Position numbers and translations under genes: made by a program. Shown in pieces: positions 50,246 to 58,058 of a stretch of 64,000 bases of DNA (its first letter is position 1; each line of letters opens with the position of its first letter). The DNA is taken from NCBI GenBank assembly GCA_965204725.1, contig OZ242005.1:4736001-4800000 (forward strand), given 5' to 3'. This DNA comes from Candidatus Latescibacterota bacterium (GTDB taxonomy: Bacteria; Latescibacterota; UBA2968; UBA8231). The notes under the pieces were generated by a model. It saw nothing but the letters and a program-made list of their open reading frames with translations. It was not told where the DNA came from and searched no databases.

Positions 50246-51271
50246 CTAGAATGCAACGGCGAGTTGCACCGTGGTCGTGCTGACTTGCTGGTTTGCGTAA
50301 TCCTCGTCTCGCACCCATTCGAGGGCTGGCGAGAACCACGTTGCCAATTCCACCGAGAGCCCGGCGAGCAACCGCCGCGTGGGCAGTTTTAGCGCCCGTG
50401 CTTCTTCCGTGCCCTGATAGCCGACGACTACCGTTGCCTCCCTGCCCGCAAGGCGGACAGCGCAAGCCGCTTCAAGCAACCAACTCGACGGTTGAGCGCC
50501 GCGACCGGCATACTCCACTTCGTGGGCTACAAAGTGCCCCAGCGAAGCTAGGTATTCGCCAGTCAGCGCTGCGTTTGCGTAACGCAGCTCAGTGCGGGCT
50601 GTCCAGCCGGGCACGCTATGGCGGCCCCGCGTATCGGCAATTACCTCTTGGAGAGCACCTGAAACACCGATGTCGCTGATATAGGACAGGTTTAGACCGA
50701 ACTCGGCCTCACCGCGCTCCAGCAAATAGCCAATTGCAGCACCGTAACCACCATTTTGGTCCTCATCGCCGTAGAAGCCGAAGATAGACCCGTGCAATCC
50801 GCCAGACGACAACCCCAATTGCAAGGCAAGCTCATTTGTTTCGCCGAGTTGGAGCGTCAGCGGATCGGAGATCAACGCGGGAGGCCAATTCGCAAATGGG
50901 ACGTATTGCTGACCAGCGGAGAAAAACCACGAGCCTTCCGGCGGCCCAATGGTCAGGCTGGCACTGTCGAGCGCGACTTGCTCGGCTTCCTCCAGCCCAA
51001 TGTCCTCTTCCTCGTACAGCAGGGTGGCCCCGGCCCCAATCCAGTCGTTTAGTTCCGCCTCGACCACAAGCTCGGCTTGCCCCACGCCGACCCCCGCGGC
51101 GCGGTCTCCTTCGTCCAGGTGCCGATAGACCCCTTCGAGTTGGACCGTGCCGCCGATCTCCCACCCAACTTGCTCAGGCTGCACGGCCTCGGCCAGCCCC
51201 AGCCCGTGCCCGACCCATAAAACCGAGCCGACGAGGATGGAGCTTTTCCCCTTCATCGCTGGCTTGCTCAA
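50246..51271 (-). CDS. Outer-membrane beta-barrel, LbtU-like porin
   Basis: Signal peptide; LLYEE, GQQYVPF, ISDPLTLQLGET; C-terminal Phe. Confidence 0.72.
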   Translation of the reverse strand: MSKPAMKGKSSILVGSVLWVGHGLGLAEAVQPEQVGWEIGGTVQLEGVYRHLDEGDRAAGVGVGQAELVVEAELNDWIGAGATLLYEEEDIGLEEAEQVALDSASLTIGPPEGSWFFSAGQQYVPFANWPPALISDPLTLQLGETNELALQLGLSSGGLHGSIFGFYGDEDQNGGYGAAIGYLLERGEAEFGLNLSYISDIGVSGALQEVIADTRGRHSVPGWTARTELRYANAALTGEYLASLGHFVAHEVEYAGRGAQPSSWLLEAACAVRLAGREATVVVGYQGTEEARALKLPTRRLLAGLSVELATWFSPALEWVRDEDYANQQVSTTTVQLAVAF

Positions 51272-52110
51272 TCAAACAAAGCGAGCCAATCGTCCACGCT
51301 TTGGGCCACCGACTCGGGATAAGCTCGGCTGCGGGCGATAAAGCCGGGGACGCCGTCGCGGCCGCTGGGCTGAGCCGGGTCGCTGTAGCGCAGGTCGAGG
51401 CTCCAGCGGATGTGGTCGGAGTGGTTGGGGATGGAGCGGTGGATGGTTTTGTGCTGGATGAGCAGGACGCTGCCGACTTTGACCGGGCAGCTAACCTGCT
51501 CGCCGGGGGGCAGGTCCTGATTGGTGATGCCTTTGAAGTTGGCCCCCGGTCCCATGCCGTGCTCGTGGCCCATGAGTGGGACGCGGTGGCTGCCGGCAAT
51601 GACTTCCATACAGCCGTTGTCAAGAGTGGCATCGACCAAGGGGATCCAAAAATTGACCATGAAGGTCTCTTCGGCGTCAGGCTGCAAATAGCCCAAGTCT
51701 TGGTGCCAAGGCACCACCGTGGAGTCTTGGTTGGGCAATTTGGCGCGCAGGTTGAATTGCGGGTGGGCCATTATTTCGGGGCCGATCACCGATTCGACAA
51801 GGTCGAGCAGCGCCGGTTGGGTCAAAATGGCGAACATGCCCTCGGTTTTGAGCTTGCCGTTGACTTGGCGCAACAGCGGGGCGGGGTCGGCCAACTGGGC
51901 GTGGATGGGGATCAGGCGCTTGGCAAAGGGCAGGGCCGCGTGCAGGTCGGACAGTTCGCCGGCCGCGTGGGCCTGCTGGGCCGCGGCATCGACAAGCGCG
52001 TCGATTTCGGCGATGAGGCGGTCAAAGACCGCGGGGTCGAGGACATCCTCGACGAGGAGATAGCCTTCGGTGCGGTAGAAGTCGAGTTGATCGGAGGTGA
52101 GGCCGCTCAT
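51268..52110 (-). CDS. Phytanoyl-CoA dioxygenase (PhyH) family Fe(II)/2OG enzyme
   Basis: FYRTEGYL, PWHQD, NGCMEVIAGSH, HRS.PN.S...R.S. Confidence 0.92.
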   Translation of the reverse strand: MSGLTSDQLDFYRTEGYLLVEDVLDPAVFDRLIAEIDALVDAAAQQAHAAGELSDLHAALPFAKRLIPIHAQLADPAPLLRQVNGKLKTEGMFAILTQPALLDLVESVIGPEIMAHPQFNLRAKLPNQDSTVVPWHQDLGYLQPDAEETFMVNFWIPLVDATLDNGCMEVIAGSHRVPLMGHEHGMGPGANFKGITNQDLPPGEQVSCPVKVGSVLLIQHKTIHRSIPNHSDHIRWSLDLRYSDPAQPSGRDGVPGFIARSRAYPESVAQSVDDWLALFD

Positions 52111-52154
52111 CGGAGTTGTCCTTTGGCTGGGGGTGGATTGAGGTTGGGTTAATG

Positions 52155-52273
52155 CTAAGTACACGACACCAGCTTTAGTTCCCGATGAATCCGGGATCGA
52201 GGGCGTCCCGCCCTCGACGAGGGCAAGATGCCCTCGATCCTTGGAAGGCTGGCGGCAGGTGTCGTGTAGTAAG
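52155..52273. repeat. Composite repeat, copy 5 (both terminal motifs, no MITE)
   Basis: CTAAGTACACGACACCAG ... core 52193-52240 ... CAGGTGTCGTGTAGTAAG. Confidence 0.85.
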
Positions 52274-52320
52274 GGGTTAATGTACAGTTTTACCGAGGGG
52301 GTCAGCAAGCGCGGCCCGGC

Positions 52321-52348
52321 TTGACGGCATCGGCGTTCCTCGTATCTT
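52321..52348 (+). promoter_or_regulatory. Putative sigma-70 promoter for the aspS leader
   Basis: TTGACG-N16-TATCTT, about 10 nt before the leader ATG. Confidence 0.5.
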
Positions 52349-52357
52349 TAGCCCACT

Positions 52358-52423
52358 ATGATGACCCGTCAGAACAACCGCACGCCCAATAATAATCCAC
52401 TCGCCCCATTGCGCGTGTTCTGA
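52358..52423 (+). CDS. Asn-rich leader peptide 1 (MMTRQNNRTPNNNPLAPLRVF)
   Basis: Five Asn codons (AAC AAC; AAT AAT AAT) in a GC-rich background, followed by attenuator hairpins. Confidence 0.8.
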   Translation: MMTRQNNRTPNNNPLAPLRVF

Positions 52424-52445
52424 CGACTAACCCCAACCAAATCTC

Positions 52446-52487
52446 AAACCCGTCGCGAACACGCATCGCGGCGGGTTTTCTGTTTTT
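52446..52487 (+). terminator. Attenuator terminator 1
   Basis: AAACCCGTCGCGA-7 nt-TCGCGGCGGGTTT, then TCTGTTTTT. Confidence 0.85.
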
Positions 52488-52500
52488 AGGAGCGATTGCA

Positions 52501-52587
52501 ATGACATTCCAGCACCCGGCACGCGCCCTTTCGCATAACAACAACGACAATAACCCCGCCATTCGGGCTCGATGGCGTTGGCCGTGA
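52501..52587 (+). CDS. Asn/Asp-rich leader peptide 2 (MTFQHPARALSHNNNDNNPAIRARWRWP)
   Basis: AGGAG RBS at 52488-52492; codon run AAC AAC AAC GAC AAT AAC. Confidence 0.85.
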   Translation: MTFQHPARALSHNNNDNNPAIRARWRWP

Positions 52588-52610
52588 CCGGATTCCACCC
52601 TCACCCCAAC

Positions 52611-52643
52611 CCGCCGTTGAGCCTCGTGCCGACGGCGGTTTTT
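52611..52643 (+). terminator. Attenuator terminator 2
   Basis: CCGCCGTTG-10 nt-CGACGGCGG-TTTTT, 25 nt upstream of the aspS ATG. Confidence 0.82.
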
Positions 52644-52668
52644 CATGTACAGCCAACGGGAGGCTATC

Positions 52669-54429
52669 ATGCACCGCTATCGCACACACACCTGTGGCGA
52701 ACTCCGCCAGCACCACGCCGGCCAGACCACTCGCCTGAGCGGCTGGATACACCGCCGAAGGGATCACGGGGGCATCCTGTTTCTAGATCTGCGCGACCAC
52801 TACGGCCTCACCCAACTCGTGCTCGCGCCGGGAAACGACGTTGCGGCCACCGCAGCCAAGGTCCCCCGCGAATCCGTAATCCGCGTCGAGGGTGACGTGC
52901 GAAAGCGGTCGCCTGAGACCATCAACCGGGCGATGGAGACTGGCGAGATTGAAATCGCTGTCCGCGAATTGGCAGTGCTCTCGCCGGCCGAGCCGCTCCC
53001 CTTTGCCGTGGCCGAAGATCCCGAAGTGGGGGAGAGCACCCGGTTGTCCTATCGCTTCTTGGACCTGCGCCGAGCCGGGCTGCACCGCCGCATTCAGCTT
53101 CGCTCGGAGGTGATCGCCAGCATCAGACGACGCATGACGGGCATGGGTTTTGCCGAATTTCAGACGCCCATTCTCACCAGCAGTTCGCCCGAGGGCGCAC
53201 GCGATTACCTCGTACCGAGCCGGCTCTATCCCGGCGAGTTCTACGCGCTACCGCAAGCCCCTCAGCAGTTCAAGCAGCTCCTGATGGTGTCCGGCTTCGA
53301 CCGCTATTTCCAGATCGCGCCCTGCTTCCGCGACGAAGACGCCCGTGCCGACCGCTCCCCCGGCGAGTTCTACCAACTCGACCTCGAGATGGCCTTTGTC
53401 GAGCAGGAGGATGTCTTCGCGGTGATCGAGGAACTCTTTTATGGTCTGTTTCGCGAGTTCACTGCTTGGGAAGTGACCGCACCGCCGTTCCCGCGTCTTT
53501 CCCACGCCGACGCCATGCTGCGGTTCGGTACGGACAAACCAGACCTGCGCTTAGGACTCGAAATTCAGGACCTCTCCGACATATTCACGGAATCCTCGTT
53601 CAGGTTGTTCAGGGACATCGTGGCAGCCGGAGGAGTCGTCCGCGCCCTGTGCGTTCCCGGTCTAGAGGCGCAGCCGCGCTCGTTTTTTGGCAGCCTCGAA
53701 GCGTTCGTCCAAGAAGCAGGCGGCAAGGGGCTGGCGTACCTCATCAACGGAGTGCAACCCACAGGCTCAATCGCCGCAGCTTTGGAGCAGAGTGTACGCA
53801 ACCGCATTATCGAGGCGTGTGCCGCCGCTCCGGGGTCCGCTATTTTCTTCCTCGCCGGGCCGCCCGCCGAGGCAGCGGCCTTGGCGGGACGGTTGCGCCT
53901 GCATCTGGCGGACCGGCTCGATTTGCGTCGGGAGGGTTGCTATGAATTCTGCTGGGTCGTCGATTTTCCCATGTACGAATGGGATGCGGACCGCGCTGGT
54001 GTAGCCTTTGCACACAACCCGTTCTCCATGCCGCAGGGCGGTATGGCGGCCTTGGCGGACCAGCCGCCGCTGGCGATCAAGGCGTATCAGTACGACATCG
54101 TATGCAACGGCCTCGAACTGTCGAGCGGCGCCATCCGCAATCACCGGCCGGACATCATGTACAAGGCGTTTGAGCTGGCCGGGCACTCGCGGCGGGAAGT
54201 GGATCGCAGATTCGGGGGCATGATCCGCGCCTTTCGCTACGGCGCTCCACCGCACGGCGGCATCGCGCCCGGCATTGACCGCATCGTCATGCTGATAGCG
54301 GACGAACCGAACATCCGGGAGGTTATCGCCTTCCCGATGAGCCAGAACGCACAGGATCCGCTCATGGGCGCGCCGAGCAAGGTGTCGCCGGAGCAGTTGC
54401 GGGAGTTGCACCTAGCAGTCTGGGAGTGA
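52669..54429 (+). CDS. aspS: Aspartate--tRNA ligase (possibly non-discriminating Asp/Asn)
   Basis: YRTHTCGEL, RRDHGG, GARDYLVP, LPQAPQQFKQLLM, CFRDED, GAPPHGG.A.G.DR; GGGAGG RBS. Confidence 0.96.
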   Translation: MHRYRTHTCGELRQHHAGQTTRLSGWIHRRRDHGGILFLDLRDHYGLTQLVLAPGNDVAATAAKVPRESVIRVEGDVRKRSPETINRAMETGEIEIAVRELAVLSPAEPLPFAVAEDPEVGESTRLSYRFLDLRRAGLHRRIQLRSEVIASIRRRMTGMGFAEFQTPILTSSSPEGARDYLVPSRLYPGEFYALPQAPQQFKQLLMVSGFDRYFQIAPCFRDEDARADRSPGEFYQLDLEMAFVEQEDVFAVIEELFYGLFREFTAWEVTAPPFPRLSHADAMLRFGTDKPDLRLGLEIQDLSDIFTESSFRLFRDIVAAGGVVRALCVPGLEAQPRSFFGSLEAFVQEAGGKGLAYLINGVQPTGSIAAALEQSVRNRIIEACAAAPGSAIFFLAGPPAEAAALAGRLRLHLADRLDLRREGCYEFCWVVDFPMYEWDADRAGVAFAHNPFSMPQGGMAALADQPPLAIKAYQYDIVCNGLELSSGAIRNHRPDIMYKAFELAGHSRREVDRRFGGMIRAFRYGAPPHGGIAPGIDRIVMLIADEPNIREVIAFPMSQNAQDPLMGAPSKVSPEQLRELHLAVWE

Positions 54430-54452: not shown

Positions 54453-54586
54453 GAAGCGGTCTGCAAACTCTGGTGGTCGTCCCTTGGGTCTAAACGATCC
54501 CGGCTGGATTCCCGCCCCGTGTCGGGGCACGGGGTGACGTTCTTTTTACGGGAATGACGCCCCAAGGTGAGGTTTCAGACCGCTTC
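54453..54586. mobile_element. Diverged, inverted copy of the MITE
   Basis: Ends GAAGCGGTCTGCAAAC / GTTTCAGACCGCTTC flanked by TCA/TCA. The interior matches the reverse complement of 8808-8942, with the palindrome loop expanded. Confidence 0.75.
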
Positions 54587-54720: not shown

Positions 54721-56754
54721 ATGAAAGACGAGTTTTTCGAGCAGGACGAGGGACGGCAATCAGCGTTCATGCCTGACCACAGCTACTTTTCCAACCTGAT
54801 CTGGCATATCGCCGACCTGCTGCGCGGCCCTTACCGGCCGCCCCAGTACGAGCGCGTCATGCTGCCTATGACTGTGCTGCGGCGGTTCGACTGCGTACTC
54901 GCTCGGACCAAGCCCGATGTTCTGGCCGCGTACGATCTCTGGGGCGACAGGCTCCACGGCGATGCACTCGACATCAGACTGAACAGAGCCGCCGGCCAGC
55001 GCTTCCACAACCACTCGCCCCTCGACTTCGAGAAGCTCAAGGGCGATCCAGACAACATCGCCCCGCACCTCGTTAGCTACATCCACGGCTTTTCGGCCAA
55101 CGTGCGCCGCATCTTCGAGTACTTTGAATTTGAGGCGGAAATCGAGAAGATGCGCGAGGCCAATCTCCTGTACCTCGTCGTCTCAAAATTCTGCGACGTG
55201 GACCTACACCCCGCTAGCGTTCCGAACGAGCAGATGGGACACATCTTTGAGAACCTCATCCGCCGCTTCAACGAACTAGCCAACGAGACCGCCGGCGACC
55301 ACTTCACGCCGCGCGAGGTCATCCGGCTGATGGTGAGCATCCTCTTCATTCACGACGACGAACTGCTCGCCACGCCCGGAACCGTGCGTAAGCTCCTCGA
55401 CCCGGCTTGCGGCACCGGCGGCATGTTGGCCGAGGCGCAAAACTACTTGCGAGACCACCACAGTGCCGCCCGGCTCTACGTCTATGGGCAGGACTACAAC
55501 AATCGCGCCTTTGCTACCGCAGCCTCCGACATGCTGATGAAGCAGGTTGACCACAACGGCATCGGCGACAACGTCCGCTTTGGCGACAGCTTCACAGAAG
55601 ACCAATTTGAGGACGAGACCTTCGACTACTTTCTCACCAATCCGCCCTTCGGCGTGGACTGGAAGAAGCAGAAGCGGGCGATCCAAGATGAGCACGACAA
55701 GCTCGGCTTTGAGGGTCGCTTTGGTGCTGGGCTATCGCGCGTGAACGACGGCTCGCTGCTTTTCCTGCAACACATAATCCACAAGTTCGAGCCGGTGCGC
55801 CCGGACGAGCGTAAGCATGGCTCGCGCTTGGCTATCGTATTCAGCGGCTCGCCGCTCTTTACCGGCGGTGCTGGCTCCGGCGAGAGCAACATTCGCAAGT
55901 GGATCATTGAGAACGACTGGCTCGAAGCGATCATCGCCTTGCCGGAGCAGATGTTCTACAACACTGGCATCGGCACCTATGTCTGGATCGTCACCAATCG
56001 CAAAGAGGAGCAGCGGCGGGGGAAAATTCAGCTTCTCGACGCCCGCGACTTGTGGACCGCGGGCGGGAGCGCAGACAACAAACGCAGCCTTGGCGACAAG
56101 CGCCGCCACATCGCCGCAGAGCAGAGCGCGGAGATCGTTGCGCTATATGGCCGCTTTGAGGACGGTGACCGCTCCAAGATTTTCGACAACGACGACTTTG
56201 GTTACACGCGCGTGACCGTGGAGCGCCCCCTGCGCTTGCGTTACCAGATGACCATAGAAGACAAGGCCCGTTTTCTCGATGCCTGCCCGTACCTGCTCGA
56301 CGACGTGCAGGCCATTGACAAGGAGTTGGGACGCGAGCCATCGTCCGACTGGAATGCGACGTGGGAGCGCATCGCGGCTCTCCTGCATGAGCACCAATCG
56401 CGCTGGAAGAAGGTGGAACAGAAGCTCTTCCGAGATGTGTTCACAGAGAAGGATGCGGAGGCCGAGCCGGTCAGGAAGGATGGCCGAGAGAACAGCTACG
56501 AGCCCGACCCTGAACTGCGCGGCTTCGAGAATGTGCCGCTCAAGGACGACGTTGACGCCTATTTCGAGCGCGAGGTGCGCCCTCACGTCCCCGAGGCTTG
56601 GATGGACCGCGACAAGGACAAAATCGGTTACGAGATCAACTTCAACCGCCACTTCTACGAGTACACGCCGCCGCGCCCGTTGGAAGAGATTGACGGGGAT
56701 TTGAAGAAGGCGGAGGAGAAGATCGTGCGGCTACTGCGGGAGGTGGTGGGGTGA
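54721..56754 (+). CDS. hsdM: Type I RM methyltransferase subunit
   Basis: IWHIADLLRG, HFTPREV, DPACGTGG, NPPF, FYNTGI. Confidence 0.95.
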   Translation: MKDEFFEQDEGRQSAFMPDHSYFSNLIWHIADLLRGPYRPPQYERVMLPMTVLRRFDCVLARTKPDVLAAYDLWGDRLHGDALDIRLNRAAGQRFHNHSPLDFEKLKGDPDNIAPHLVSYIHGFSANVRRIFEYFEFEAEIEKMREANLLYLVVSKFCDVDLHPASVPNEQMGHIFENLIRRFNELANETAGDHFTPREVIRLMVSILFIHDDELLATPGTVRKLLDPACGTGGMLAEAQNYLRDHHSAARLYVYGQDYNNRAFATAASDMLMKQVDHNGIGDNVRFGDSFTEDQFEDETFDYFLTNPPFGVDWKKQKRAIQDEHDKLGFEGRFGAGLSRVNDGSLLFLQHIIHKFEPVRPDERKHGSRLAIVFSGSPLFTGGAGSGESNIRKWIIENDWLEAIIALPEQMFYNTGIGTYVWIVTNRKEEQRRGKIQLLDARDLWTAGGSADNKRSLGDKRRHIAAEQSAEIVALYGRFEDGDRSKIFDNDDFGYTRVTVERPLRLRYQMTIEDKARFLDACPYLLDDVQAIDKELGREPSSDWNATWERIAALLHEHQSRWKKVEQKLFRDVFTEKDAEAEPVRKDGRENSYEPDPELRGFENVPLKDDVDAYFEREVRPHVPEAWMDRDKDKIGYEINFNRHFYEYTPPRPLEEIDGDLKKAEEKIVRLLREVVG

Positions 56755-58058
56755 GCCACCTTGCTTGGGTCAACTCACTGCCTGAGTCTTGGGAGGTGAA
56801 GCCGCTTCGGGCGACGACTGATTATGTGGTAAGTAACGTCGATAAATTGTCGGTTGACCACGAAATACCGGTTCGATTGTGCAATTACACGGACGTTTAC
56901 AACAACGATTTCATTTCTATGAGCCTCGACTTCATGCAGGCAACAGCGACCGAAGACGAGATCGAGAAATTCGGCTTACAAGTCGGAGATGTTGTCATCA
57001 CGAAGGATTCAGAGTCATGGGATGACATAGGTGTCCCCGCACTTGTCCGGGAGACAGCCGACGACCTCGTGTGCGGTTATCACCTCGCGCTTCTTCGTCC
57101 CCGTCGCCACCAGTTGGCAGGTGCATTCCTGCTCCGGTGCCTCCAAGCAAAGCCGATATGTGTCCAACTGGAACTTGCTGCGAATGGAGTGACTCGCTTT
57201 GGGCTAGCGAAGTCTGAGATAGGGGGTGTCACGTTGCCGGTGCCGCCGCTTTCAATCCAGTACGCCATCGCCGACTACCTTGACCGCGAGACGGCGCGGC
57301 TGGATGCACTGGTGGCAGAAAAGGAGCAACTGCTGGAACTGTTGGCCGAGAAACGCCGTGCGCTCATCACCCGCGCCGTCACCCGCGGCCTCGACCCAAA
57401 CGTCCCGCTCCGCGACTCCGGTGTTTCATGGCTCGGCGAGATTCCGACGCATTGGAAGGTGATCCTATTGCGCTTTGCCTGCTGCTCAATTGAGACGGGT
57501 GGAACACCGTCTATCGATTACGTGGATGATACGAGCGAAACCAGTGTGGACTGGTTTACTCCTGGCGATTTTGGAAGCGATCTAGTTCTCCGCGAGTCGT
57601 CACGCAGACTCGCTCAAGAGGCGGTGTCATCGGGGAAGGCTAAGCTATTCCCGGCTGGTTCTGTGTTTGTTGTAAGTATAGGAGCGACACTCGGGAAGGT
57701 GGGAATCATCGAAGCACCAGCCTCTGCCAATCAACAGATCAACGTCATGATTCCGCGAGGTACTGTTGAGCCACATTTCCTTGCTCATGTTCTTTGGATA
57801 CTTGGGGACGTAATGGGTGCAATGGCTAACAGTGCAACATTACCGATTCTGAATCAGCAAAGAATGGGAGAAATACGTGTTCCGGTTCCTCCAGTTTCCG
57901 AGCAGCGAGAGATCGTGTCTGCTATCGCAAGCGAGACAAAAAGGATCGAGTGCGTTTGGATAGCTGCCGAACACACGATTGCACTTCTCAAGGAACGCCG
58001 CTCTGCCCTCATCGCGGCTGCCGTGACCGGGCAGATTAACGTAGGGAGCGCGACATGA
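56751..58058 (+). CDS. hsdS: Type I RM specificity subunit
   Basis: Two TRDs with conserved spacers PPLSIQYAIADYLD...LAEKRRALITRAVTRGL and LKERRSALIAAAVTG. Confidence 0.93.
   Translation: MSHLAWVNSLPESWEVKPLRATTDYVVSNVDKLSVDHEIPVRLCNYTDVYNNDFISMSLDFMQATATEDEIEKFGLQVGDVVITKDSESWDDIGVPALVRETADDLVCGYHLALLRPRRHQLAGAFLLRCLQAKPICVQLELAANGVTRFGLAKSEIGGVTLPVPPLSIQYAIADYLDRETARLDALVAEKEQLLELLAEKRRALITRAVTRGLDPNVPLRDSGVSWLGEIPTHWKVILLRFACCSIETGGTPSIDYVDDTSETSVDWFTPGDFGSDLVLRESSRRLAQEAVSSGKAKLFPAGSVFVVSIGATLGKVGIIEAPASANQQINVMIPRGTVEPHFLAHVLWILGDVMGAMANSATLPILNQQRMGEIRVPVPPVSEQREIVSAIASETKRIECVWIAAEHTIALLKERRSALIAAAVTGQINVGSAT

Follow-up and report, generated by a model that had tools for sequence, protein, structure and literature searches.

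In the 64,000-nucleotide (nt) stretch of Candidatus Latescibacterota DNA analysed here (contig OZ242005.1, positions 4,736,001 to 4,800,000; hereafter the window), we identify a leader region ahead of aspS2, the gene for an accessory aspartyl-tRNA synthetase (AspRS2). We propose that this gene is gated by two classical ribosome-mediated attenuators arranged in series, which would sense the supply of Asn-tRNA(Asn) and also of Asp-tRNA; we put the probability of this reading at roughly 0.8. An earlier annotation of the window, referred to below as the original prediction, had described two serial attenuators with asparagine-rich leader peptides upstream of aspS, and both leader open reading frames (ORFs), both terminators and the helices it named are all present where it had placed them. 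The downstream gene does encode an AspRS, as had been claimed; it is, however, an accessory second paralogue, 44% identical to aspS1, and not the housekeeping aspS. The region contains the hallmarks of a leader-peptide attenuator, including a short ORF, a cluster of Asn and Asp codons, an intrinsic terminator, and a mutually exclusive antiterminator whose 5' strand lies at the end of the ORF. The 560-nt gap that separates the AspRS gene from a divergent 2-oxoglutarate (2OG)-Fe(II)-oxygenase-like gene (51268-52110, minus strand) holds everything that the original prediction had named, and the elements of the region, together with aspS2 itself, are as follows.

52321-52348, plus strand: sigma-70-like promoter (TTGACG, 16 nt, TATCTT; one site, against a shuffle mean of 0.3)
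52358-52423, plus strand: leader ORF 1 (ORF1), 21 codons, translated as MMTRQNNRTPNNNPLAPLRVF and then a stop
52367-52375, plus strand: unit 1 region 1, CGTCAGAAC, which pairs with GTTCTGACG at 52417-52425 and is part of the minimum free energy (MFE) fold
52413-52425, plus strand: unit 1 region 2, GCGTGTTCTGACG, the partner common to regions 1 and 3
52446-52487, plus strand: unit 1 intrinsic terminator, with a 13-bp GC-rich stem (52446-52458/52466-52478), a loop at 52459-52465 and a T tail reaching 52487
52488-52492, plus strand: AGGAG, ribosome-binding site (RBS) of ORF2, 8 nt before its ATG
52501-52587, plus strand: leader ORF 2 (ORF2), 28 codons, translated as MTFQHPARALSHNNNDNNPAIRARWRWP and then a stop at 52585-52587
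52515-52530, plus strand: candidate region 1 of unit 2, long version, which pairs with 52571-52586 (RNAalifold consensus columns 35-50/91-106)
52566-52577, plus strand: unit 2 region 2, GGCTCGATGGCG, forming a predicted 12-bp antiterminator with 52612-52623, two of its pairs being G-U
52611-52643, plus strand: unit 2 intrinsic terminator, with 9-bp arms (52611-52619/52630-52638), a 10-nt loop and TTTTT at 52639-52643
52658-52663, plus strand: aspS2 RBS, GGGAGG
52669-54429, plus strand: aspS2, a bacterial-type aspartate--tRNA ligase of 586 amino acids (NF001750, 787.6 bits against a cut-off of 443)

In unit 1, the Asn codons of ORF1 lie at 52373-52378 and 52388-52396 (AAT AAT AAT), and its TGA stop codon (52421-52423) falls inside region 2. 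The antiterminator pairs GCGTGTTC (52413-52420) with GAACACGC (52457-52464) and is extended by GACG (52422-52425) with CGTC (52451-52454); its region 3 (52451-52454 plus 52457-52464) is thus contained within the 5' arm and loop of the terminator. Folded as a whole, unit 1 reaches -41.1 kcal/mol (z = -4.33; none of 200 shuffles matches this stability) and adopts helix 1:2 together with the terminator. When the first 55 nt are masked, representing a ribosome stalled at AAT AAT AAT, region 2 (52413-52425) pairs with 52451-52464 at -17.8 kcal/mol, at a stage when the terminator still lacks its 3' arm. When the ribosome is modelled at the stop codon inside region 2, the terminator is the sole remaining structure. 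We also observed that the motif ACCCGTC is common to region 1 (52365-52371) and to the 5' arm of the unit 1 terminator (52448-52454), so that RNAalifold additionally pairs region 1 with the terminator 3' arm (1:4) alongside the 2:3 helix; a four-strand swap, in which 1:2 with 3:4 alternates with 2:3 with 1:4, is a possibility that these models raise.

ORF2 of unit 2 carries six consecutive Asn/Asp codons (N-N-N-D-N-N) at 52537-52554, and its AGGAG is kept in 11 of the 13 aligned sequences that cover the site. The short 1:2 helix of the original prediction, CGCCAT (52557-52562) with ATGGCG (52572-52577), is present, but RNAalifold favours the longer pairing of 52515-52530 with 52571-52586 over this 6-bp version; the changes in the longer candidate are one-sided only. 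The antiterminator is predicted at -30.5 kcal/mol, compared with -18.0 for the terminator alone, and the single-sequence MFE of the whole unit takes the antiterminator. The terminator is predicted by RNAalifold; our terminator scan missed it because of its 10-nt loop. Unit 1 aligns collinearly with unit 2 (score 39 versus 23.2 +/- 4.3, a value reached by 2 of 500 shuffles), and the sequences hint at an old duplication as the origin of the two units.

In the mechanism we envisage, transcription would start from the promoter at 52321-52348, no more than about 3 nt from the ORF1 AUG. With Asn-tRNA(Asn) plentiful, the ribosome would arrive at the UGA (52421-52423) and mask region 2, the terminator at 52446-52487 would form, and the transcript would end there. 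With Asn-tRNA(Asn) scarce, the ribosome would stall on AAU AAU AAU (52388-52396), some 17-19 nt upstream of region 2, which would then be free to pair with 52451-52464, the 5' arm and loop of the terminator, and RNA polymerase would read through. Unit 2 would repeat the test with its N-N-N-D-N-N codons (52537-52554), region 2 (52566-52577), partner strand (52612-52623) and terminator (52611-52643), and aspS2 would be reached only by transcripts that pass both units. More AspRS2 would in turn increase the amounts of Asp-tRNA(Asp) and of Asp-tRNA(Asn), on which GatCAB acts. We infer each of these steps (ribosome stalling, termination, induction and the charging of tRNA(Asn) by AspRS2) from sequence features.

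The leaders accompany aspS2 across its family. We examined the upstream regions in 32 of the 33 family genomes that bear aspS2 (G041 was left out because its contig ends there), and all 32 contain at least one Asn/Asp-rich leader ORF and a terminator, with two units in 17 genomes and one in 15. Leader DNA was detectable by BLAST in 28 of 168 phylum genomes, all of one family; in these leaders the ORFs remain in frame through indels of 3, 6, 18 and 21 nt (3 or 6 nt in the case of ORF2), and the Asn codons number 3-8. The leader stop codon always lies in or beside a segment able to pair with the 5' arm of the terminator. In G005, the start of unit 1 has been lost and an early stop gained. The promoter also recurs, with a -35 element TTGAC(G/A) at the equivalent position in 25 of 27 aligned relatives; in G013, the -35 and -10 elements of the unit 1 promoter lie on either side of an insertion of about 48 nt that carries a hairpin of its own (L011 1091-1313).

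The five most distant aspS2 orthologues, with 64-69% identity, have leaders that are invisible to BLAST and yet show the same layout with different helix sequences. Their peptides include MTQIRANNNQDHNRTSTGGTAPAG and MQTLRNTLNNRLNADANRRRAGRSVF, as well as MTTNSQNRRNQNACDDNTVAAGFDVF and MRTTYFTSLIHDDNNPNTHVTRTRFRVP from the two units of G162. Predicted antiterminator and terminator energies are, respectively, -27.4 and -25.2 kcal/mol in G158, -36.8 and -28.2 in G128, -36.0 and -18.8 in unit 1 of G162, and -25.8 and -32.6 in unit 2 of G162; the -36.0 kcal/mol antiterminator of G162 is a perfect 12-bp helix (z = -5.15). The leader fold of G157 is weak (z = 0.31), and the aspS2 of this genome carries a TAG stop. 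Since G162, at 64% AspRS identity, has both units and the peptide of its unit 2 is homologous to ORF2, the two-unit arrangement is probably ancestral. These comparisons bear out two expectations of the original prediction, namely that homologous leaders would share runs of Asn/Asp codons, a richness that outlasts complete turnover of the leader sequence in the distant orthologues, and that the reading frame of both ORFs would be conserved, all indels being multiples of three.

The same comparisons speak to the idea that the small ORFs are untranslated, and that the region is an RNA-only switch with two terminators, responding to a ligand, a protein or a tRNA, in which the Asn codons are incidental A-rich loops. 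ORF1 and some of the distant leaders lack an obvious Shine-Dalgarno sequence and the stems are strongly conserved, as such a switch would allow. We nevertheless regard it as extremely improbable, given the in-frame indels, the retained position of the stop codon relative to region 2, and the persistence of Asn/Asp richness while the remaining peptide and helix sequences are replaced. In addition, AATAATAAT gives stops or Ile when read in its other frames, and at E <= 10 there is no relevant Rfam match, the T-box included. An Rfam cmscan of 51900-52900 at that threshold returned four weak matches and neither a T-box (RF00230) nor a His, Trp, Thr, Leu or Phe leader; the best of the four aligned the terminator hairpin with CrfA and scored 20.1 bits, short of the gathering score of 38. 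In-frame ORFs, persistent Asn/Asp enrichment and stop placement relative to region 2 collectively support the ribosome-dependent attenuation that had been proposed.

Translation of the leaders could also matter in another manner, with control exerted mainly through coupling or re-initiation, masking of the aspS2 RBS, or Rho-dependent polarity, and with intrinsic termination being secondary. This would fit the single-unit genomes, where the T tract abuts the aspS2 RBS, and the occurrence in G158 and G155 of an Asn-rich stretch in frame with the end of lysS. However, every unit ends in a GC-rich hairpin followed directly by a T run, the signature of an intrinsic terminator, and the strand engaged by the alternative helix is in every case the hairpin's 5' arm and not the RBS; we therefore consider predominantly translational control very unlikely. 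As regards the arrangement in G158 and G155 (L142 1-564 and L143), the Asn-rich stretch forms part of a 45-residue tail that includes DNNGDNNNQGNNN. In this lysS fragment of 187 residues, the match to the LysRS profile stops at residue 142; the fragment's stop codon adjoins the antiterminator before aspS2, and the leader seems to be fused to, or overlapped by, the upstream lysS.

Constraint on the leaders was compared in 19 sequences against 175 four-fold sites of aspS2, 29% of which are invariant. Such columns in unit 1 amount to 13 of 16 in region 2, 23 of 27 in the terminator arms and 5 of 8 in the terminator loop, as opposed to 2 of 27 in the spacer; 11 of the 12 columns of unit 2 region 2 are likewise invariant. 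The conservation of the unit 1 terminator loop is as predicted for the partner of the antiterminator. Across relatives, the terminator helices of both units are nearly invariant and 99-100% paired, the value for unit 2 being 100% in 14 sequences, where three pairs vary, each on a single side. In 27 sequences, pairing in the unit 1 antiterminator amounts to 98.1%; two of its pairs are changed on both sides, and RNAalifold predicts it independently. The unit 2 antiterminator is paired in 98.8% of cells and shows one-sided changes only.

Several observations weigh against the attenuation reading. Covarying helices had been anticipated; the stems show much stronger conservation than synonymous sites do, but the formal covariation signal is weak: the two-sided count for the unit 1 antiterminator is matched by 17 of 500 shuffles, and unit 2 has no two-sided pair change. 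Helix 1:2 of unit 1 stands as far as its presence in the sequence and in the MFE fold is concerned, but it displays zero compensatory changes; it is paired in 92.3% of cells, five of its nine pairs vary only by breaking, which happens in several genomes, and region 1 is absent in G134 and G172. The whole fold of unit 2 is no better than shuffles (z = -0.61, 53 of 200). ORF1 has no Shine-Dalgarno sequence; as the promoter ends 9 nt before its ATG, ORF1 would be leaderless or nearly so, a start suggested by a promoter-like match. Finally, 15 of the 32 genomes examined make do with a single unit, and the suggestion of the original prediction that the tandem layout multiplies the dynamic range is best read with this count in mind. 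Because the stems hardly vary, the covariation counts say little, and the stronger structural argument is that distant orthologues rebuild the same topology from different sequences.

Counts over the whole genome speak against chance, as does the recurrence of the arrangement in all 32 genomes examined. Asn accounts for 2.7% of codons in the long ORFs of this genome, and a genome-wide count gave 31 short frames with at least three consecutive Asn codons, six of which also have a terminator-like hairpin; two of these six are the adjacent aspS2 units. Three further short ORFs with NNN and a hairpin were considered and rejected, as they precede unrelated genes, encoding an HD-like protein, an unknown protein and a sigma-54 activator. 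No Asn/Asp-rich upstream ORF was found upstream of aspS1 or of asnS. The aspS1 upstream region has no terminator-like site, and that of asnS has only the terminator of the upstream gene and a repeat hairpin. Within this genome, the predicted leader attenuator is specific to aspS2, aspS1 and asnS having none, and a comparable leader was present in 0 of 76 aspS loci from outside Latescibacterota.

AspRS2 is best seen as an inducible auxiliary enzyme. The aspS1 gene (G000:C1:1815514-1817250) is present in 41 of 41 relatives searched, among which aspS2 was found in 16 other genomes at 86-91% identity; in the family as a whole, aspS2 orthologues occur in 33 of 76 genomes (E <= 1e-180). The best matches outside the phylum are 55-61% identical and, by their labels, come mostly from Alphaproteobacteria together with Fibrobacteria, Chitinivibrionales, Victivallis and Planctomycetes metagenome-assembled genomes. 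Since these outside relatives are closer than aspS1 is at 44%, aspS2 was likely acquired horizontally. The gene is also decaying in some genomes and appears dispensable: G022 retains fragments (G022:C1:4024545-4025208) with two TGA stops, the TAG of G157 is internal (G157:C330:1569-3320), and in G172 (L138) aspS2 is reduced to residues 179-394 behind a shortened leader.

These properties would also suit the same device with another trigger, in which aspS2 provides a backup or inhibitor-insensitive AspRS that is switched on when AspRS1 or AsnRS is inhibited or failing, for example through a natural aminoacyl-adenylate mimic. Its accessory status (33 of 76 family genomes), probable horizontal acquisition and ongoing loss in G022, G157 and G172 all agree with such a role, as do the Asp codons interspersed among the Asn codons, through which both products of a non-discriminating AspRS would be sensed. 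Precedents exist as well: the gene for an indolmycin-resistant TrpRS1 reportedly carries an attenuator. The indolmycin-resistant TrpRS1 itself is described in PMC9437257, and PMC2494555 places auxiliary synthetases under charging-sensitive control, with multiple T-boxes at thrZ. We find this explanation unlikely, though, since no inhibitor biosynthesis or immunity genes lie beside aspS2, whose neighbours vary, and since Asn codons outnumber Asp codons in every leader, a better fit to asparagine supply than to AspRS inhibition.

The gene inventory of this genome makes a link to asparagine supply plausible. AsnRS (465.8 bits, cut-off 342.6), GlnRS (697.1 bits) and GatB (558.5 bits) are present; in the same genome no AsnA was found, and the best AsnB match scored 61 bits against a cut-off of 267. 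The single tRNA-Asn (GTT) has U1-A72, the base pair that GatCAB requires on tRNA(Asn) according to PMC4206432. With AsnRS, GlnRS and GatB present, asparagine synthetases AsnA and AsnB missing and U1-A72 on tRNA(Asn), an Asn-codon attenuator on an AspRS is metabolically sensible. The same paper treats this inventory (AsnRS, GlnRS, GatCAB, tRNA(Asn) with U1-A72, no asparagine synthetase), which Thermus thermophilus, Deinococcus radiodurans and Bdellovibrio share, as the signature of tRNA-dependent asparagine synthesis. In this context, we hold as a tentative possibility, somewhat short of even odds, that AspRS2 is regulated like an amino-acid biosynthetic enzyme, being a horizontally acquired entry step of tRNA-dependent asparagine synthesis that asparagine starvation would induce through the two attenuators.

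Such a role calls for a non-discriminating AspRS2, a property that the enzyme may have but that the comparison with AspRS1 makes less certain. A bacterial-type AspRS2, GatB and a tRNA(Asn) with U1-A72 coexist in this genome. AsnRS is encoded in 31 of 31 genomes of the genus, so the non-discriminating status of AspRS2 is not deducible from an absence of AsnRS; in favour of that status, an AsnRS over the cut-off is lacking in all five tested genomes that hold the closest outside relatives of aspS2. Compared with chains from the PDB, the N-terminal (anticodon-binding) domain of AspRS2 scores 91-89 bits against Asp/Asn ligases and 86-83 against Asp-only enzymes. The corresponding domain of AspRS1 scores 113-105 bits against Asp/Asn ligases and 87 and 81 against Asp-only ones, which makes AspRS1 at least as non-discriminating-like and speaks against the proposed role. 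Similarity to PDB chains was accordingly rejected as a means of splitting the two into a discriminating and a non-discriminating enzyme: it gives no separation, and AspRS1 is the more non-discriminating-like, if anything. The His of the motif RRRDHGG, which we take to matter for recognition of tRNA(Asn), is found in AspRS2, which again counts in its favour, but equally in AspRS1, and in the Asp/Asn chains of the PDB, its counterpart in the Thermus Asp-only chain being Leu.

Distribution across the genus adds a further point against the proposed role. Phyletic complementarity between GatB and aspS2 was considered and rejected, as GatB is present in 31 of 31 genus genomes, including 10 of 10 without aspS2; the transamidation route is thus independent of aspS2. 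AsnB over the cut-off occurs in 3 of the 10 genus genomes without aspS2 and in 1 of the 21 with it, counts from kin genomes to which no statistics apply, and the complementarity of AsnB and aspS2 is partial and suggestive. Within the genus, G015 and G017 make up a separate set, with an AsnRS of a full-length type that scores 546-548 bits compared with about 470 in most genomes, an AsnB above 500 bits and no aspS2. G024 has the same AsnRS type (515 bits) and no aspS2, and no AsnB was found in it.

Leader-peptide attenuation is textbook knowledge for Trp, His, Leu, Thr, Ile/Val and Phe, the Escherichia coli examples being trpL, hisL, leuL, thrL, pheL and ilvL, along with pheST, which is controlled through the pheM leader. 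Like these E. coli leaders, the aspS2 units combine a short ORF bearing a cluster of regulatory codons, a terminator, an exclusive antiterminator and a stop codon placed such that a finishing ribosome would mask region 2, and as in pheST the target is an aminoacyl-tRNA synthetase. They differ from the E. coli leaders in using Asn and some Asp codons, in having two units in series, in serving an accessory AspRS and in belonging to Latescibacterota. The original prediction knew of no Asn-codon attenuator on aspS, and our literature search, whose scope left out the study of attenuation in aminoacyl-tRNA synthesis operons by Lopatovskaya et al. 2010, likewise found no asparagine or AspRS leader-peptide attenuator. 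The general attenuation mechanism is set out in PMC1183508. We apparently have here the classical mechanism applied to an amino acid for which we found no published example, the novelty lying in the Asn codons and the AspRS target.

The closest functional parallels are T-boxes. Saad et al. 2012 reportedly found that an Asn-specific T-box controls Clostridium acetobutylicum genes that serve tRNA-dependent amidation. As in that system, charging of tRNA(Asn) would control read-through into genes of the indirect Asn-tRNA pathway that include an extra aspS; unlike in the Clostridium T-box, where the RNA binds the tRNA directly, the proposed sensor at aspS2 is the ribosome that translates the leader ORF. 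One of the three aspS genes of C. acetobutylicum is T-box regulated, as stated in PMC2494555, which also describes two or three adjacent T-boxes in the Bacillus thrZ and trpE leaders. The aspS2 region resembles that of thrZ in placing putative charging-sensitive terminator units in series before an auxiliary synthetase gene, and it departs from thrZ and trpE in using leader-peptide units rather than T-boxes and in the amino acid concerned.

A second AspRS is also present in T. thermophilus and D. radiodurans; as far as the relevant passages of PMC4206432 go, a second AspRS is rare and, where known, of the archaeal type. The AspRS2 of Thermus and Deinococcus is such an archaeal-type enzyme of about 430 amino acids and has been shown to be non-discriminating, whereas the aspS2 product is of the bacterial type, has 586 amino acids and is known from sequence. 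The first AspRS of the present genome is possibly itself non-discriminating, unlike in the Thermus/Deinococcus case. Bdellovibrio, for its part, has a non-discriminating AspRS. Those passages make no mention of attenuator control of the AspRS genes in Thermus, Deinococcus or Bdellovibrio.

If our reading is correct, bacteria that make asparagine only on tRNA would gauge its supply by means of a ribosome reading the very tRNA that their pathway supplies in charged form. In uncultured phyla, the codon content of leaders could then serve as a marker, readable from sequence, of what duplicated synthetases do physiologically. The family would also make it possible to follow the evolution of attenuators that keep their logic, through a natural series of forms with a single unit, with two, or with the leader fused onto the lysS end.

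The surroundings of aspS2 vary among relatives, with lysS as a flanking gene in G158 and G155 and asd in G157. In the window, type I restriction-modification genes (54721-58058) lie directly downstream, one hsdM-like (677 amino acids) and one hsdS-like (435 amino acids). The minus strand upstream carries the 2OG-Fe(II)-oxygenase-like gene and a gene for an LbtU-family siderophore porin (50246-51271). One more element follows aspS2.

54513-54536, plus strand: hairpin with a T-rich tail 3' of aspS2, a member of a dispersed repeat

This hairpin is probably the end of the aspS2 transcript. Its core has 59 copies in the genome (29 forward and 30 reverse; 0 in a reversed control), and since it is dispersed and resembles repetitive extragenic palindromic (REP) elements, it is possibly not a dedicated terminator. 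One copy of the core lies directly upstream of asnS (L120 1544-1521). A different hairpin-forming interspersed repeat, about 125 nt long, occupies 52150-52285, immediately ahead of the aspS2 promoter; GGTTAATG lies on each side of it. Within the genome, BLAST of 52140-52295 yielded 194 hit lines, whose core spans about 95 nt and is 88-96% identical, and the repeat looks like a miniature inverted-repeat transposable element (MITE) or a REP-type element.

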